Shown: positions 1 through 4,350, numbered from the stretch's first letter. The stretch: DNA of 4,350 nt from a virus (IMGVR_UViG_2778261594_000008); one strand, 5' to 3'. A program made the numbers and translations. Notes: a model not told the origin generated them from the sequence alone.

Positions 1-1218
1 ATGAACAAACTGAGCGATACCTTGCTAAGGAAACTTCATGGTAAGCCAGCGGAGAAAAACACGTTTTATAGCGATGGCGGAAATCTGAGCGTGAAATATT
101 TAACATCAGGGAAATTAACCTGGTATTTCACTTACAGGGCAGGAACGGGAAGAGAGACACGACCGGAACGTATTAAGCTGGGAAATTATCCTGATCTGAG
201 CCTGAAAGCAGCCAGGGAAAAAGCCGCCCAGTGTCGCGCATGGCTGGCGGAGGGGAAAAATCCACGCCATGAGATGAATTACGCCGTACAGGAAGCGTTA
301 AAGCCGGTAACGGTTGGCGATGCGCTCACCTACTGGCTTGAGTCGTACGTAAAGGAAAACCGCGTGGATTATATCGCCCTGAAAAGGCGACTTAATAATC
401 ACGTAATACAGTACATTGGCGCTATGCCGCTGGATAAATGCGAGCTACGGCACTGGCTGGCCTGTTTTGACCAGGTGGCAAAGCGAACACCTGTTACTGC
501 CGGATTCGTGCTACAGACATGCAAGCAGGCGCTTAAGTTCTGCCGGAGGCGGCGCTTTGCAATCAGCAACGTTCTCGATGATCTGAACGTGGCGGACGTT
601 GGGAAAAAACCGGATATAAGCGAACGTGTCTTAAGCACCAAAGAACTGGGCGAGTTATTGCAGGCGCTGGATAAAAAAATATTTTCTCCTTACTACGTCG
701 CGTTAATTCGCCTCCTGATTGTCTTCGGATGCCGGACAGTAGAACTGAGGTTATCGGAGATCAGCGAGTGGGATTTTACCGAAATGCTATGGACCGTTCC
801 GAAGGAGCACAGCAAAACGAAGGTTGCAATATTCCGGCCCATACCGGAAGCGATCCTGCCGTTCGTCACGCGGCTGGTGGACCAGAACAGGCACACGGGC
901 TTATTACTGGGGGAAGTGAAACAGGAGGCTAGCGTATCGCAGTACGGCAGATTAGCGCACAGGAGGCTAAAACACCCTCAATGGTCATTGCATGACATCC
1001 GGCGCACCTTTACAACCATGCTGAACGATTTAGGCGTTGATCCTCACGTCGTGGAGCAGCTTACAGGCCACCAGATGCCAGGAATGCAACGCGTGTACAA
1101 CCATTCCCGCTATATTGATGCGAAACGCAATGCGCTTGATATGTGGGTGGAGCGGTTGGAGATACTGGCGGGAACACATGAAAACGTAACCACGCTACCA
1201 GTAACCAGAATAAAATAA
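1..1218 (+). CDS. int: Tyrosine recombinase / site-specific integrase, P4 (IntA-like) family, 405 aa
   Basis: ORF fills 1-1218. N-terminus has the arm-binding pattern typical of P4-type integrases (DGGNLSV...LTWYFTY). C-terminus has catalytic box I R (FGCRTVELR) and box II HDIRRT...H...VYNHSRY with the terminal Tyr. Length fits full-length family members. The ATG is at window position 1, so the promoter and att site are not visible. Confidence 0.92.
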   Translation: MNKLSDTLLRKLHGKPAEKNTFYSDGGNLSVKYLTSGKLTWYFTYRAGTGRETRPERIKLGNYPDLSLKAAREKAAQCRAWLAEGKNPRHEMNYAVQEALKPVTVGDALTYWLESYVKENRVDYIALKRRLNNHVIQYIGAMPLDKCELRHWLACFDQVAKRTPVTAGFVLQTCKQALKFCRRRRFAISNVLDDLNVADVGKKPDISERVLSTKELGELLQALDKKIFSPYYVALIRLLIVFGCRTVELRLSEISEWDFTEMLWTVPKEHSKTKVAIFRPIPEAILPFVTRLVDQNRHTGLLLGEVKQEASVSQYGRLAHRRLKHPQWSLHDIRRTFTTMLNDLGVDPHVVEQLTGHQMPGMQRVYNHSRYIDAKRNALDMWVERLEILAGTHENVTTLPVTRIK

Positions 1219-1236
1219 TTTTTTTCGTGTTTTTTC

Positions 1237-1250
1237 AGTATGCGCATACT
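1237..1250. repeat. Perfect 14-bp palindrome AGTATGCGCATACT just after the int stop, preceded by two T-runs
   Basis: Read directly; reverse complement equals itself. Function unknown (protein binding site or hairpin). Confidence 0.5.
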
Positions 1251-1260
1251 GGATAAGTGC

Positions 1261-1310
1261 ACAGATACAACGTGAAACAATGTGCAACAACGTGACACAA
1301 TCACGAACAA
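1261..1310. repeat. Five tandem imperfect 10-bp direct repeats, each ending ACAA (consensus about CGTGAMACAA), exactly 10 bp apart
   Basis: Blocks acagatACAA / cgtgaaACAA / tgtgcaACAA / cgtgacACAA / tcacgaACAA. Helical-turn phasing suggests cooperative binding on one DNA face (excisionase, integrase or Rep-like). Confidence 0.7.
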
Positions 1311-1401
1311 GAGGCCAAAAAGAATACAGATTTGTAAGCTACTGATTTTTAATGCTCAGCTGGTTTTTTATACATTAGTGAATTACGCGTTAAAGTGTGC
1401 G

Positions 1402-1438
1402 AAAAAAGGCATAAAACAAGATTTTATGCCTTTGTATT
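1402..1438 (+). terminator. Possible intrinsic terminator or bidirectional hairpin between int and the AlpA-family gene
   Basis: Stem GGCATAAAA (1408-1416), loop CAAGA, stem TTTTATGCC (1422-1430), followed by TTTGTATT and preceded by AAAAAA. The stem is AU-rich (3 GC pairs of 9), so strength is doubtful. Confidence 0.3.
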
Positions 1439-1520
1439 AACATGAATTTAAATGATTTTATCCTGATTATTCCTCTTTCTGTAAACCATGCGACACCAAC
1501 ATTTGCCAACTCTGAATCAT

Positions 1521-1560
1521 CCTGACACAATCAGACACATCCCAACGCAATAGAACACGA
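1521..1560. repeat. Second 10-bp-phased array: GACACAA (1524), GACACAT (1534), AACGCAA (1544), AACACGA (1554)
   Basis: Four related 7-mers at exact 10-bp spacing, 35-70 bp upstream of the AlpA-family start. Candidate promoter-proximal binding sites. Confidence 0.6.
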
Positions 1561-1592
1561 AATAACTCTTTAAGAAACGAAAGGGGGCAATA

Positions 1593-1781
1593 GTGTTAAG
1601 CACTGATCGGTTTATACGTGAAAAAGAATGCGAAAAGCTAACAGGCCTTAGCCGCTCATGCCGCTACCGCCTGGAAAAGGCCGGACAATTCCCATCACGT
1701 CGTAAACTTGGTGGGCGTTCTGTTGGCTGGTCTTTATCTGAGGTTTTGGCCTGGAAGGATAGCTGCAAGGCAGTTCACTAA
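1593..1781 (+). CDS. alpA: AlpA / Vis-family helix-turn-helix regulator (excisionase-like), 62 aa, GTG start
   Basis: Protein ...EKLTGLSRSCRYRLEKAGQFPSRRKLGGRSVGWSLSEVLAW matches the AlpA family pattern (TG.SR...Y.L...G.FP....LG.RSVGW...E...W). RBS AAGGGGG at 1581-1587, 5 nt before the GTG. Sits directly downstream of a P4-type integrase, as is typical. Confidence 0.8.
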   Translation: MLSTDRFIREKECEKLTGLSRSCRYRLEKAGQFPSRRKLGGRSVGWSLSEVLAWKDSCKAVH

Positions 1782-1920
1782 AAAGACTGGCGGCACACAG
1801 TCGCCACACATCCACTAATACAGAGATATAACTATGAAGATTGAATATGCGCCCGAACGTGGGCGGGGATTCGTTCGCCCTGGTGAAACTGAAAAACAAC
1901 AAAATTGGGGTTTTTCAGGC

Positions 1921-1950
1921 ATAAAAAAAGCGGCCCCGATATGGAGCCGC
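1921..1950 (-). terminator. Canonical Rho-independent terminator for the leftward operon
   Basis: On the minus strand: GCGGCUCC, loop AUAUC, GGGGCCGC (8-bp stem with one G-U), then UUUUUUU. Lies about 75 nt downstream of the P1 stop. The plus-strand side is followed only by CTTTCT, so it is a weak terminator in that direction. Confidence 0.7.
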
Positions 1951-2024
1951 CTTTCTGAACAATTAACCTGCTGCGCCTTATGTGTATGTGATCCCAAACA
2001 TAAGCACGGGAATGATAGCCGCTA

Positions 2025-2228
2025 TCAGGCTGGTGGGCAATTACCTTGCTTGTTGGGGCCGTATTGTGCTGCCATTTTCATCCGTTCAGAACGTGAATAT
2101 TTTTTTAGAAACTCATCAAGGACAAAAGCGCATGGAGCGAATCTTTCTGATTCATGCTCGAGCGCCATATTTTCGTGCTCTCTGTTCGTTTTTTGCGATG
2201 GTGTATTGGTTGATTCTTTGTTGGTCAT
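2025..2228 (-). CDS. Small hypothetical protein P1 (67 aa), paralog of P2; unknown function
   Basis: ORF with ATG start. Shares with P2 the N-terminal MTN and a C-terminal motif R[FL][AV]P..F.L[DE][DE]F..KY.R. Preceded by the conserved 44-nt element and followed by the terminator. The overlapping plus-strand ORFs look like antisense artefacts. Confidence 0.6.
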   Translation of the reverse strand: MTNKESTNTPSQKTNREHENMALEHESERFAPCAFVLDEFLKKYSRSERMKMAAQYGPNKQGNCPPA

Positions 2229-2236
2229 TGTGTGTA

Positions 2237-2280
2237 CCTGTAAAGCAATGCGCCGGAGTTCCTCACGCCACGGCGCTGAT
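2237..2280 (-). repeat. Copy 1 of the conserved 44-nt intercistronic element (plus strand CCTGTAAAGCAATGCGCCGGAGTTCCTCACGCCACGGCGCTGAT)
   Basis: 41/44 identical to copy 2 at 2922-2965. As minus-strand RNA it has a 6-bp stem GCGCCG/CGGCGC with a 15-nt loop, then UUGCUUUACAGG leading into the P1 start. Confidence 0.85.
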
Positions 2281-2285
2281 GTTTT

Positions 2286-2465
2286 TTATTCTTTGGGTTC
2301 AATACCGCGTTGCTGTAATTCTTTTCGGATTATTCGTTTTATCCAAGCTGCTAAAGAGTCATCACCGTCTTGTTGTTGTGCTTTTTCCATCTTTTCCCGT
2401 AAGTCAGGATCTAAACGGAACTGGAAAGGAGGATTACCACGCCTTTCATTTTTGTGTGTTGACAC
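2286..2465 (-). CDS. Putative ribbon-helix-helix protein RHH-2 (59 aa, GTG start), paralog of RHH-1; may be degenerate
   Basis: Found by manual translation; not in the supplied ORF track. Sequence VSTHKNERRGNPPFQFRLDPDLREKMEKAQQQDGDDSLAAWIKRIIRKELQQRGIEPKE shows an RHH pattern (beta strand FQFRLDP, helix A, loop, helix B). Same length as RHH-1 and offset by exactly 685 bp. The only in-frame ATG (2390) would give a 34-aa fragment. The GTG overlaps the -35 of the opposing promoter. Confidence 0.4.
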   Translation of the reverse strand: MSTHKNERRGNPPFQFRLDPDLREKMEKAQQQDGDDSLAAWIKRIIRKELQQRGIEPKE

Positions 2466-2486
2466 GTCAATTACACTCCATATAAT
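2459..2486 (+). promoter_or_regulatory. Consensus sigma70-like promoter TTGACA-N16-TATAAT, rightward
   Basis: TTGACA at 2459-2464 and TATAAT at 2481-2486, both perfect hexamers with a 16-bp spacer. Homologous in position to the weaker rightward promoter of module 2 (TTGACG 3212-3217). Confidence 0.45.
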
Positions 2487-2494
2487 GTGTTTAT

Positions 2495-2506
2495 GTGTAT
2501 ATACAC
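2495..2506. promoter_or_regulatory. Perfect 12-bp palindrome GTGTATATACAC over the predicted transcription start; candidate operator
   Basis: Self-complementary. Flanked by GTGT (2487-2490) and ACACAC (2510-2515), giving an imperfect palindrome of about 30 bp. Half-site GTGT(A/T) resembles the module-2 operators. Confidence 0.4.
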
Positions 2507-2532
2507 ATTACACACAACTAGCACAAAAAACA

Positions 2533-2566
2533 ACGCCCCGCAGTGATGGGAACACATACGGGGCGT
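2533..2566 (+). other. GC-rich leader hairpin (module 1 copy): stem ACGCCCCG/CGGGGCGT, 18-nt loop, followed by TCTAACCAA
   Basis: Direct inverted repeat. Homologous to the 3281-3313 hairpin, including one compensatory pair change (C-G to A-T). No U-tract, so not a terminator. Confidence 0.5.
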
Positions 2567-2685
2567 CTAACCAAACCATTAATTGAGGTAACGATTATGG
2601 CTATAAAAGAGCATAGCTTACTCTTTATACACACACAAACGCCCCGGAAACGGAATAATCCGTTTCATAGTTCGGTTTTGTGCAC

Positions 2686-2913
2686 TCATCCTGGCGGTCG
2701 GTTTTTGCCGGATTTAAGCCGCCGTGGGTATTTATCGACAAAATCTTCAAGGGCAAATTTTTCTGGTGGCACTAAGCGCGGCGCTGGTGGTGGTATTTTT
2801 GTTCTGGTTAGTTCTTCCTCAAGTCTGGCGCAGGCTTCTGACTGCCTTTGCCGGATGATTTCATCATCTTGCGTTTGCGTGTCTTGTATTGGTGATAGTG
2901 TGTTGTTGGTCAT
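2686..2913 (-). CDS. Small hypothetical protein P2 (75 aa), paralog of P1; unknown function
   Basis: ORF with ATG start. AGGG RBS-like motif 8 nt upstream inside the end of the conserved element. Shares N-terminal MTN and the C-terminal F.LEDF.DKY.RR motif with P1. Confidence 0.65.
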   Translation of the reverse strand: MTNNTLSPIQDTQTQDDEIIRQRQSEACARLEEELTRTKIPPPAPRLVPPEKFALEDFVDKYPRRLKSGKNRPPG

Positions 2914-2921
2914 GATACTGC

Positions 2922-2965
2922 CCTGTAAAGCAATGCGCCGTAGTACCTCACACCACGGCGCTGAT
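2922..2965 (-). repeat. Copy 2 of the conserved 44-nt intercistronic element
   Basis: CCTGTAAAGCAATGCGCCGTAGTACCTCACACCACGGCGCTGAT. Differs from copy 1 at three positions, all in the predicted loop. Confidence 0.85.
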
Positions 2966-2970
2966 AGTGA

Positions 2971-3150
2971 TTATTCTGATTCTTTGGCCTTGCGACGCTG
3001 GCGGTATTCAACTTCCCGCTTTAATGCAGTTGTAACAAACTGCCCTGTACTTTCGCCGGGCATTTTTACCGCCTCAACATTGTTCATAACTTCATGTGGA
3101 ACCCTTGCCGCAACTGTTTGTGATTTTGCGTTTACTGCTTTTGTCGCCAT
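2971..3150 (-). CDS. Ribbon-helix-helix (Arc/MetJ/CopG-like) DNA-binding protein RHH-1, 59 aa
   Basis: MATKAVNAKSQTVAARVPHEVMNNVEAVKMPGESTGQFVTTALKREVEYRQRRKAKESE fits strand / helix A / G-x-S-T loop / helix B. ATG at 3150 has RBS GAGGGG 8 nt upstream. The track start at 3159 (GTG) would overlap that RBS, so the ATG is preferred. Confidence 0.7.
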   Translation of the reverse strand: MATKAVNAKSQTVAARVPHEVMNNVEAVKMPGESTGQFVTTALKREVEYRQRRKAKESE

Positions 3151-3198
3151 GTTGAGCACCCCTCATAAAAAACAAATGCAGTATGCAGGAAAAAAAAC

Positions 3199-3253
3199 AA
3201 GTGTTCAACACTTGACGTGTTTAACACCTCGATTTAAATTGGTGTTCAACACC
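3199..3253. promoter_or_regulatory. Divergent promoter region with three 11-bp palindromic operator-like sites GTGTT(C/T)AACAC
   Basis: Sites at 3201-3211, 3217-3227 and 3242-3252. Rightward promoter candidate TTGACG (3212-3217), 17-bp spacer, TAAATT (3235-3240). Leftward candidate TTGAAC (3208-3203 on minus), 17-bp spacer, CATACT (3185-3180). The operators overlap both. Confidence 0.5.
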
Positions 3254-3283
3254 TTATTTAGGCAAGGTGTAGAAACGACGAAA

Positions 3284-3310
3284 CCCCGCACTGTAGGAGC
3301 AGTAACGGGG
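3284..3310 (+). other. Leader hairpin (module 2 copy) in the 5' UTR of ORF A: CCCCG ... CGGGG with inner ACUG/CAGU stem, followed by TCTAACCAA
   Basis: Inverted repeat read directly; homologous to 2533-2566. Confidence 0.5.
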
Positions 3311-3342
3311 CTTCTAACCAACAACGTAAACGAGGAGCCGTT

Positions 3343-3537
3343 ATGGTTGCCGTAAATCATATACCACACCTTGTACACACACAAACGGCCTTTGTGTGGC
3401 GTTTTCTGGCACTGAGTGCCGGAGAATCTCAAATCATCCACGTAACCGCCTGGACGGAACGCGAAGCGCGTAACCTTTGCCCGTCCGGTTGTGTTGCTGT
3501 ATTTGCCGCCCGTATTCGCCAGGGGGTAGGCTTATGA
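3343..3537 (+). CDS. Small protein A (64 aa), possibly Icd-like (host cell division inhibitor-like) family
   Basis: RBS GAGGAG at 3332-3337, 5 nt before the ATG. Stop overlaps the start of ORF B (ATGA). The motif FVWRFLAL...WTEREAR...FAARIRQ recalls Icd-like small proteins of P4-like prophages; this is from memory and needs an HMM search. Confidence 0.6.
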   Translation: MVAVNHIPHLVHTQTAFVWRFLALSAGESQIIHVTAWTEREARNLCPSGCVAVFAARIRQGVGL

Positions 3538-3767
3538 GCCAGGAAATCACACTACAACAGGCAGCAGAACGCGCCCACCAAATCGAAGTTATTTGCGCAC
3601 TGGCAGAGGATTACCCTGGCATGATGACCGACAGCGAATCAGGGGCAATCATCGGCTTACTTAAACGCCTTAGCGGTGAGGTCTGCGTATTCCTGAGCGA
3701 TGAACAGGAAAGAAGAACGCTTATTTCTAACGAAAAAAAATGCGGAGGGGTACACCATGTGCAATAA
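3534..3767 (+). CDS. Small hypothetical protein B (77 aa), alpha-helical
   Basis: ATG at 3534 overlaps the ORF A stop (translational coupling), with AGGGGG upstream. The track's earlier ATG at 3477 lies inside ORF A and is less likely. Confidence 0.6.
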   Translation: MSQEITLQQAAERAHQIEVICALAEDYPGMMTDSESGAIIGLLKRLSGEVCVFLSDEQERRTLISNEKKCGGVHHVQ

Positions 3768-3993
3768 CATCCGTCCGGACGCAGCCGCCGAAGCCATCAT
3801 AACGCTAATGCATGCGCTGATTGATATTTCTGTTATTGCTGACAGGGCGCATAAGCACGCCACCAGTGAAACAGAATATGCTGGGGCTTTCGTTCCTCAT
3901 TCGCTGGCGGTTATGCAACTTAGTGCGGATATGGCACTGAATGAGGCAGGTAAAATTCTTACCGCAGATATTCAGAGGGTACGCCATGAATAA
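3757..3993 (+). CDS. Small hypothetical protein C (78 aa)
   Basis: ATG at 3757 with strong RBS GGAGGGG at 3744-3750, 6 nt upstream. Overlaps the end of ORF B by 11 nt. The track start at 3700 would overlap B by 68 nt. Confidence 0.55.
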   Translation: MCNNIRPDAAAEAIITLMHALIDISVIADRAHKHATSETEYAGAFVPHSLAVMQLSADMALNEAGKILTADIQRVRHE

Positions 3994-4213
3994 AATCCCT
4001 TTTGAAGTATTAATCCACTCTGAAAACGCATTAATTAAAGCGCGCGAAATGAATGCGTTGTTAATTAAATTAATTGAAGTGCCGGAAGGTGGTAAGGAAT
4101 CAGGTGCCTTAATGTTTGCAGCCATTCAGACATTACTATCGCCTGTTATTGATGAACTGGATAAGGCAATGGCAATTCACGAAAATAATAACGCGCCCCA
4201 CACCGGAGAATAA
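3986..4213 (+). CDS. Small hypothetical protein D (75 aa)
   Basis: ATG at 3986 with RBS AGAGGG 6 nt upstream. Overlaps the ORF C stop by 8 nt. Possibly related to B and C (shared ESGA-type motif between helices). Confidence 0.55.
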   Translation: MNKIPFEVLIHSENALIKAREMNALLIKLIEVPEGGKESGALMFAAIQTLLSPVIDELDKAMAIHENNNAPHTGE

Positions 4214-4218
4214 AAATA

Positions 4219-4350
4219 ATGAAACTTAAATATTCTGGCTTAACTGCCAGTGGCAAAACTCGCACTAAATTCATGCGCGGTGATATTTACCGCGACCAGT
4301 ACGGCGGCACGGTAATGATTAAGGGCGTGGCGGGACGGTGCGTAACTTAC
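4219..4350 (+). CDS. Hypothetical protein E, 5' part only (runs off the window end)
   Basis: ATG at 4219, 5 nt after the ORF D stop, with GGAG about 10 nt upstream. Open through 44 codons to the window edge (MKLKYSGLTASGKTRTKFMRGDIYRDQYGG...). Not recognised. Confidence 0.45.
   Translation, partial: MKLKYSGLTASGKTRTKFMRGDIYRDQYGGTVMIKGVAGRCVTY

Follow-up and report, generated by a model that had tools for sequence, protein, structure and literature searches.

In the immI region of phage P22, two small repressors of the ribbon-helix-helix (RHH) fold, Mnt and Arc, act at the overlapping divergent promoters Pant and Pmnt, with Gln9, Asn11 and Arg13 serving as the base-contacting residues of Arc. 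Among other described switches, the immI operon of P1 and P7 comprises c4 RNA, icd and ant (related immunity RNAs occur in N15 and P4), CopG and the antisense RNA II control repB in pMV158, and Stl, a repressor of Gram-positive phage-inducible chromosomal islands (PICIs), is de-repressed by a helper protein. The locus considered here spans positions 3199-3253 of a 4,350-nt stretch of viral DNA (IMGVR_UViG_2778261594_000008), the whole of which we call the window; judged from its sequence, the window is the left, regulatory end of an EcCICFT073-type Gram-negative PICI, a satellite of E. coli phages. Three palindromes at this locus are very probably the operators of the adjacent 59-amino-acid protein RHH-B, which would repress the rightward early operon and autoregulate. 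We further infer that relatives of this system have at least ten specificities and that repressor, operators and promoters form a 310-bp immunity cassette exchanged among satellites at conserved joints.

A preliminary description of the window had proposed three near-identical 11-bp palindromes with centers at 3206, 3222 and 3247, operating as a lambda-like switch common to two divergent promoters and bound most likely by the neighboring RHH protein (there RHH-1). The palindromes were read directly, exactly as claimed, and a repeat search of the window grouped them as one repeat family (D8):

3201-3211: palindrome O1, GTGTTCAACAC, center 3206; overlaps the leftward -35 element and adjoins the rightward -35 element
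3217-3227: palindrome O2, GTGTTTAACAC, center 3222; extends from the last base of the rightward -35 element through the spacer
3242-3252: palindrome O3, GTGTTCAACAC, center 3247; covers the predicted rightward start site (about 3247-3248)

Their centers are separated by 16 bp (O1-O2) and 25 bp (O2-O3). The consensus GTGTTYAACAC has 3 exact matches in the window versus a mean of 0.02 in 200 dinucleotide-preserving shuffles, of which none reached 3. O1 forms the core of a perfect 17-bp palindrome (CAAGTGTTCAACACTTG, 3198-3214) and O3 that of a 13-bp palindrome (GGTGTTCAACACC, 3241-3253). Among loci of the same operator class as the window (class I, see below), O1 is found in most, being degenerate in locus L002, and O3 is unchanged in all seven that were aligned; the position of O2 is constant over all specificity classes. 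Within a 24-kb locus carrying a class-I cassette the motif is confined to the three operator positions, and a search of 29 loci of other classes did not find it. The sequence GTGTTAAGCAC at the alpA start (1593-1603), one mismatch from the consensus, was considered as a fourth operator and rejected as coincidental, since it also occurs in the related island of E. coli RM10466 (locus L001), whose RHH protein has another specificity.

The proposed overlap of the palindromes with the leftward -35 element and with the rightward spacer and start site was confirmed against the predicted hexamers of two promoters:

3212-3240, plus strand: P_R, predicted rightward promoter from the promoter scan; -35 TTGACG at 3212-3217, 17-nt spacer, -10 TAAATT at 3235-3240
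3180-3208, minus strand: P_L, inferred leftward promoter of the RHH gene; -35 TTGAAC from 3208 to 3203, 17-nt spacer, -10 CATACT from 3185 to 3180; its score of 8/12 lies under the promoter-scan threshold; expected start about 3173

The result is a tripartite operator between divergent predicted promoters with one site, O1, on the promoter of the repressor itself. O3 starts two bases after the -10 element of P_R, the placement of O2 and O3 relative to the P_R hexamers is fixed in every relative, and the hexamers are 97.9% conserved among 47 unique class-I sequences; the -10 motif of P_L (..ACAGTAT..) is likewise found at the same place in all relatives. These fixed positions argue for the notion that the operators are common to both promoters. 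In most other classes one site adjoins the leftward -10 element; the window appears to have lost this site, with O1 substituting as the autoregulatory one. An A-run, AAAAAAAACAA, at 3190-3200 lies about 40-57 bp upstream of the predicted rightward start, where every class is rich in A, and is a possible UP element; in the scan, it resembles a minus-strand terminator when combined with O1.

The assignment of the palindromes to RHH-B is carried by a covariation between protein and DNA. We compared 184 loci encoding RHH-B relatives, taken from representative genomes, metagenomes and viral contigs with a small number of E. coli records added, and grouped them by RHH residues 12, 14 and 16, those opposite Arc Gln9, Asn11 and Arg13 in a weak hhalign alignment. 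The table of residue triads versus operator motifs was strictly diagonal:

T-A-R (class I): GTGTTNAACAC; at least two sites in 115 of 117 loci, versus 0 of 66 other loci
K-E-R: GTGGCTGACAC; at least two sites in 31 of 37 loci
R-D-R: GTGTC[CG][CG]ACAC; at least two sites in 10 of 10 loci
S-T-R: GTGTAAGACAC in either orientation (GTGT(AAG/CTT)ACAC); at least two sites in 8 of 8 loci
K-S-R: GTGTCCGTCAC; at least two sites in 3 of 3 loci
A-K-R (EcCICFT073, strand QALKAR): GTGGGCCACAC; 1 of 1 locus, with the same layout as the window

The T-A-R and K-E-R motifs had been defined on the first two dozen loci and then held on more than 100 loci fetched later. Proteins that share a triad and differ elsewhere in the strand core go with the same operator (KSKRFDVRV/KSKRIDARV, KSQKTSVRI/KSQKISVRI and KSQKVQARA/KSQKIQARA), and both Arg16 and the GTG...CAC operator arms are invariant across classes. 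Conservation among the 47 distinct class-I intergenic sequences is 99.2% for the operator arms and 70-94% for the unpaired central base, compared with 78.3% for other positions. A further cassette, in strain UC4224, uses the operator GTGTATTTCAC. The class-I cassette by itself occurs in 486 of the 5,426 complete E. coli genomes.

The protein at the center of this covariation is a small member of a family named in RefSeq but previously without known function:

2971-3150, minus strand: RHH-B, the proposed repressor, 59 amino acids, YlcI/YnfO family; strand residues about 11-17 (QTVAARV), with T12, A14 and R16 as putative DNA-facing residues

Its start, placed at GTG 3159 in the preliminary description, had to be corrected to ATG 3150 (giving MATKAVNAKS...), as in all homologues. 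RHH-B passes the YlcI/YnfO model of NCBIfam (NF041551; 60 bits against a cut-off of 30, E 1.6e-16), its homologues bear that family name in RefSeq, and it matches phrog_949 (function unknown); searches gave no Pfam match, no peptidase S24 match and no relative in the Protein Data Bank by sequence or profile. The AlphaFold model (predicted local distance difference test score 81) has an extended N-terminus followed by two helices, which, as a predicted monomer, conforms to the strand-helix-helix fold of the MetJ/Arc/CopG superfamily, and the RHH turn G-x-S/T/N at the start of helix 2 is represented by G32-E-S34-T35, invariant in 21 homologues. The way in which positions 12 and 14 covary with the inner base pairs, and in which Arg16 is as invariant as the GTG/CAC arms, indirectly supports a picture in which a dimer of RHH-B would insert its two-stranded sheet into the major groove of the repeated sites. 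A profile comparison of the RHH-B family with the neighboring RHH-A gave a probability of 0.7% which, like the value for Arc given below, was judged too weak to use. Neither the DNA of 3160-3560 nor the RHH-B protein found a match in 50,697 phage records, so that at this sensitivity the cassette is not found in bona fide phages; viral-contig matches to RHH-B are mostly satellite-sized.

The best structural matches of RHH-B are RHH antitoxins (TacA, MazE7, ParD), and an RHH gene followed by a small ORF (open reading frame) is the usual antitoxin-toxin order. Together with the site that adjoins the leftward -10 element in most classes, this raises the alternative that RHH-B and the ORF downstream form a type II toxin-antitoxin-like pair whose palindromes autoregulate the leftward unit only, any rightward effect being incidental. 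The ORF concerned is the following:

2686-2913, minus strand: ORF of 75 amino acids, downstream of RHH-B in the leftward unit; identical in the RM10466 island despite the different operators there

We consider such a pair improbable. The 75-amino-acid product has no family match in Pfam, PHROGs or NCBIfam, and the downstream ORFs of the various cassettes (75, 67, 69 and 57 amino acids) match no toxin family and no Pfam or NCBIfam model; a coupled toxin of known family was not found beside RHH-B in Pfam, PHROGs and NCBIfam (PADLOC was not searched). Moreover, a gap of 57 nt with a terminator-like hairpin separates the RHH-B gene from the 75-amino-acid ORF, and the two best-conserved sites sit on the rightward promoter, not the leftward one.

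A natural cassette swap bears on the question of whether RHH-B or another factor recognizes the sites. Identity between the window and the RM10466 island is about 100% over 1-3000 and 96-100% over 3311-4350, but only about 50% over the part in between:

3001-3310: proposed swappable immunity cassette, comprising RHH residues about 1-50, operators, promoters and leader hairpin, with joints at 2903-2977 and 3296-3321

Across this swap, the RHH strand changes from KSQTVAARV in the window to KSKKLEARV, GTGGCTGACAC replaces the site at both the O2 and the O3 position, and a third copy lies by the leftward -10 element. The hairpin loop 3289-3305, which lies inside the swapped cassette, was considered as a specificity determinant and rejected, as class-I loci carry differing loops. 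Binding of the palindromes by a factor other than RHH-B, which would then be unrelated to them, could involve AlpA, the 75-amino-acid product, a host regulator, a helper-phage repressor or one of two further proteins of the window:

2286-2465, minus strand: RHH-A, Arc-like, phrog_228 ('Arc-like repressor', E 1.5e-6), also with a weak YlcI/YnfO match
3343-3537, plus strand: Icd-like protein of 64 amino acids, first gene of the rightward operon; NF033153, 65.5 bits against a cut-off of 25

All of these are encoded nearby or able to act in trans, PHROG families 1743 and 6196, relatives of the Icd-like protein, are labelled 'transcriptional repressor', and AlpA is the sole regulator of these islands with experimental support (PMC6092414). 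However, alpA, RHH-A, the 75-amino-acid ORF and the icd-like gene are the same in the window and RM10466 while all operators differ, so that the specificity partner cannot be any of these four. The same operators are retained in class-I loci whose Icd-like proteins differ or that lack the upstream cassette encoding RHH-A, and a host or helper factor cannot account for about ten operator classes each tracking the RHH strand. We therefore regard another binder as very improbable; the proposal that the adjacent RHH protein is the likeliest one is upheld by the covariation in the 184 loci together with the swap.

The palindromes might instead function as RNA or DNA hairpins, with O1 and the T8 run after it as a minus-strand intrinsic terminator for leftward transcripts and O3 in the 5' stem of the rightward mRNA. 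Indeed, the scan rates CAAGTGTTGAACACTTG followed by TTTTTTTT (3214 to 3198, minus strand) as terminator-like, and likewise the 13-bp palindrome around O3. The stems are short and low in G+C, though, and the asymmetric cores of several classes (GTGGCTGACAC, GTGTAAGACAC) would pair poorly. Hairpins would conserve pairing, yet the arms are 99% sequence-identical within a class and replaced wholesale with the protein between classes; the A-run is present also in classes without O1. A purely hairpin-based role is, on these grounds, highly improbable. That the sites are a chance repeat or a duplication relic without function has next to no probability: short repeats in two or three copies are frequent where intergenic DNA is A+T-rich, but three exact sites exceed expectation by far, and the sites are kept in Escherichia, Edwardsiella, Kosakonia and Pectobacterium although the flanks diverge, a comparison that already excludes it.

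If the palindromes are operators of RHH-B, the switch would work as follows. RHH dimers on O2 (spacer) and O3 (start site) would exclude RNA polymerase from P_R, silencing an early operon of the icd-like gene, three small ORFs, DUF4222, primase and SSB, and occupancy of O1 would cover the -35 element of the weak P_L and limit the synthesis of RHH-B itself. Arg16 of each subunit would recognize the invariant GTG/CAC arms, and the inner five base pairs would be recognized by residues 12 and 14. The view put forward in the preliminary description, that the protein both autoregulates and represses the rightward operon, gains comparative support from site positions and covariation.

Several points weigh against this assignment. 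Protein and operators are adjacent, so their association is partly plain linkage; linkage accounts for joint travel, but not for the concerted replacement of all site copies at constant places in the promoters nor for the sharp conservation of the arms. Many loci are near-duplicates, the 117 class-I loci containing 47-48 unique sequences, and for the small classes, motif definition and counting used one and the same set of loci. The AlphaFold monomer does not form the strand, and the link to Arc is weak, the family profile aligning with a probability of 5.8%, albeit in a sensible strand register. Both promoters rest on consensus prediction, P_L being sub-threshold. The O1-O2 spacing of 16 bp corresponds to 1.5 helical turns and would place neighboring dimers on opposite faces of the helix, which makes lambda-type cooperativity doubtful. 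Finally, AlpA has been published as a requirement for EcCICFT073 induction (PMC6092414), and the RHH protein may for this reason be a local regulator rather than the master switch.

Compared with the described systems, the proposed RHH immunity cassette is nearer to P22 Mnt/Arc than to lambda CI/Cro, with P22 as the closest analogue in function. As in P22, the gene for a small RHH repressor and the operon that it would control are divergently transcribed, the operators lie within the promoter, between the -35 and -10 elements and at the start site, and T12, A14 and R16 fall opposite the Arc contact residues in the weak hhalign register. The differences are that there is no significant sequence similarity to Arc, that each cassette has one RHH protein instead of the Arc/Mnt pair, that the operators are 11-bp units in two to four copies instead of a single 21-bp or 17-bp operator, and that the controlled operon in the window has no antirepressor gene.

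The likeness to lambda proposed earlier holds for the logic, namely a tripartite operator, divergent promoters and swappable cassettes, but not for the parts, a 59-amino-acid RHH protein without cleavage domain and no detected Cro-like regulator. As with OR1-OR3 at PR/PRM, three operators are common to divergent promoters with one on the promoter of the repressor, and as in lambdoid imm regions a repressor-operator cassette is exchanged between otherwise identical elements. In contrast, CI is a helix-turn-helix protein whose C-terminal domain undergoes RecA-stimulated self-cleavage, an antagonist resembling Cro was not detected among the rightward genes, the first of which is Icd-like, and the O1-O2 spacing is unlike that in OR.

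Stl and Rpr, the master repressors of Gram-positive PICIs (SaPIs), resemble the repressor proposed here in being encoded by the satellite and transcribed divergently from an excision/replication operon, and SOS insensitivity is expected here too because RHH-B has no cleavage domain; they are, however, helix-turn-helix proteins of another fold and size. In pMV158 as in the window, replication genes would be under joint control of an RHH protein acting at the promoter and an antisense RNA acting where translation starts (for the window, see below), but CopG shares a transcript with its target and has a single 13-bp pseudo-symmetric element as its binding site, and the circuit sets plasmid copy number instead of satellite quiescence. 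A further difference from Gram-positive PICIs is that the experimentally required regulator in Gram-negative PICIs is an activator, AlpA (PMC6092414).

The icd-like gene that would be the first target of repression probably has a second layer of control. Features in and around its leader are the following:

3249-3270, plus strand: 5' hairpin (ACACCTT...AAGGTGT) of the rightward transcript as predicted; the right half of O3 extends into its left arm
3272-3350, minus strand: candidate SymR-like cis-antisense RNA of about 79 nt, with an anti-Shine-Dalgarno hairpin opposite 3321-3349, a terminator hairpin from 3310 to 3284 and a U-rich tail from 3283 to 3272
3384 to 3356, minus strand: inferred promoter of the antisense RNA, inside the first icd-like codons; -35 TTGTGT from 3384 to 3379, 17 nt, -10 TATGAT from 3361 to 3356; expected start about 3349-3351

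The icd-like gene probably has both its Shine-Dalgarno sequence and its start codon covered by the antisense RNA. Full-length alignments to the Rfam SymR model (RF01809) were obtained at the corresponding position on the RHH strand of seven related loci; with 28-45.6 bits they fall short of its gathering score of 61, and the window copy has no Rfam match. An alignment of 16 copies gives a two-hairpin structure with compensatory changes in 13 of 25 pairs and 53 G-U pairs on the antisense strand versus 3 on the icd strand, and the window copy folds at z = -3.9. The anti-Shine-Dalgarno sequence is exposed in the loop of the first hairpin, and the U-rich tail follows the second; hairpin 3284-3310 is better read as a terminator of the minus-strand RNA. 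The 5' hairpin at 3249-3270, by comparison, recurs at this position in all related loci with a different sequence each time, and it may affect mRNA stability.

By analogy, the icd-like gene is probably under symE-type two-layer control by a protein repressor and a cis-antisense RNA. E. coli SymE is repressed by LexA and by the cis-antisense RNA SymR over its 5' untranslated region (PMC1891008), and the locus would share with it the combination of a promoter repressor with an antisense RNA of about 77 nt whose 5' end lies just within the ORF and which spans start codon and Shine-Dalgarno sequence. It differs in the target, Icd-like versus the AbrB-fold SymE, in the repressor, RHH versus LexA, and in RNA model scores below the gathering score. 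With P1/P7 immI it has in common an icd homologue as the first ORF of an operon that would be tightly repressed, and it would also share the pairing of promoter control with a small RNA that masks a ribosome-binding site. However, the RNA here would be SymR-like and encoded in cis on the opposite strand, not processed from the same strand, and the protein repressor is RHH instead of C1. A C4/isrK immunity RNA in the leader, to be expected by comparison with P1 and P4, was considered and rejected, with no match at E <= 1 in the window and 13 related loci nor at E <= 10 in 3230-3420; C4 and isrK matches have been reported for some Gram-negative PICIs (PMC10111431). The four rightward ORFs of the window have no match to a DNA-binding family in Pfam or NCBIfam, and their PHROG matches are of unknown function except for the two 'transcriptional repressor' labels on Icd-like relatives. 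Some RefSeq records extend the icd-like coding sequence upstream across the operators (compare 2660-3067 of locus L031).

The window contains a second, upstream cassette, which includes RHH-A:

2286-2671: upstream tandem cassette A, with RHH-A, promoter, palindrome, hairpin 2534-2565 and icd-like remnant
2459-2486, plus strand: promoter of cassette A, perfect consensus TTGACA-16-TATAAT, directed antisense into the RHH-B unit
2493-2508: 16-bp palindrome of cassette A, ATGTGTATATACACAT, over the start, with ATGTGT half-sites spaced 8 bp
2597-2671: truncated icd-like remnant of 24 codons, in cassette A

Cassette A carries the same kind of hairpin as the operator cassette, and conserved joints flank each of the two (2903-2977 and 2218-2292; 3296-3321 and 2549-2574; repeats D1 and D6), matching the borders of the natural swap between window and RM10466. 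Within the left joint, between the stop codon of the RHH gene and the small ORF that follows, there is a hairpin with a 12-bp stem (2935-2961), terminator-like on both strands and more strongly conserved than the surrounding coding sequence. E. coli UC4224 (NZ_CP104472.1, 9400-12400; locus L188) has a capsid-forming PICI, with genes for capsid, protease, portal, TerS and TerL, that contains three consecutive RHH cassettes, the middle one with operators GTGTATTTCAC and GTGAAATACAC. Such arrays might give cross-immunity against other satellites. For the interplay between AlpA and the RHH protein, read-through from alpA across the leftward cassettes is a speculative possibility.

As to the element as a whole, family searches identified a P4-type tyrosine integrase (1-1218) and an AlpA-family protein (1593-1781) in the window. 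The RM10466 island, about 12 kb, splits tqsA; one of its ends is 96% identical to the window, and its genes include int, alpA, DUF4222, DUF927 primase, SSB, major capsid, head decoration and TerS. It has the hallmarks of an EcCICFT073-type PICI, i.e. an int-alpA end, a primase/replication module, a capsid-like and a decoration gene, a size of about 12 kb and no tail or lysis genes, as judged from gene content. EcCICFT073 has the same gene order, including the leftward YlcI/YnfO-family gene C_RS30120 opposing a rightward icd-like gene.

Other features of the window lie apart from the operators. Between int and alpA are tandem 10-bp repeats (ACAACGTGAA, 3.4 copies, 1267-1300) and a second run of 10-bp-periodic (G/A)ACAC-type units (about 1523-1562), both of them candidates for sites of AlpA or for arm-type sites of the integrase. 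Downstream of int, a perfect 12-bp inverted repeat (AAAGGCATAAAA / TTTTATGCCTTT, 1405-1433) is probably the int terminator; it underlies an Rfam match to BSnc120 (1369-1447) that, at 27.9 bits against a gathering score of 114, was treated as chance. Long plus-strand ORFs at 1834-2586 (250 amino acids) and 2543-3355 (270 amino acids) cross the operator region and, in antisense orientation, the leftward genes; they can almost certainly be dismissed as genes.

Palindromic operators bound by an RHH repressor are a well-known type of mechanism and introduce no new principle. AlpA has been described as the activator required for EcCICFT073 induction in work according to which a repressor had not been identified (PMC6092414), and later papers repeat this AlpA-only picture without mention of an RHH regulator (PMC11773190; bioRxiv 10.1101/2022.09.08.507074); the literature searched contained no paper tying an RHH or YlcI/YnfO protein to PICI regulation. 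A bolder extension, which we offer tentatively and hold to be possible yet rather doubtful, is that YlcI/YnfO-type RHH proteins are the missing master repressor of Gram-negative and capsid-forming PICIs including EcCICFT073, silencing the icd/replication operon. Induction would then proceed via a class-specific helper anti-repressor, or via AlpA-dependent read-through that enters from upstream, circumvents the operators and crosses the repressor gene in antisense orientation. If this were true, the cassettes, at least ten in number, would be genuine immunity types, a resident satellite with two or three of them in tandem, as in the window and UC4224, would be able to silence incoming rivals of other types, and a two-residue code (positions 12 and 14) setting the inner five base pairs of the operator would provide a ready set of orthogonal 59-amino-acid repressors.

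With the assignment proposed here, the YlcI/YnfO family would gain its first functional assignment, and a concrete candidate repressor with its exact operators can be named for a widespread satellite family that includes EcCICFT073 and a capsid-forming PICI. The natural repressor-operator series links two strand residues to five base pairs and may be useful for understanding RHH recognition and for obtaining orthogonal small repressors. Satellite silence and its helper-driven waking would thereby become testable with few constructs.

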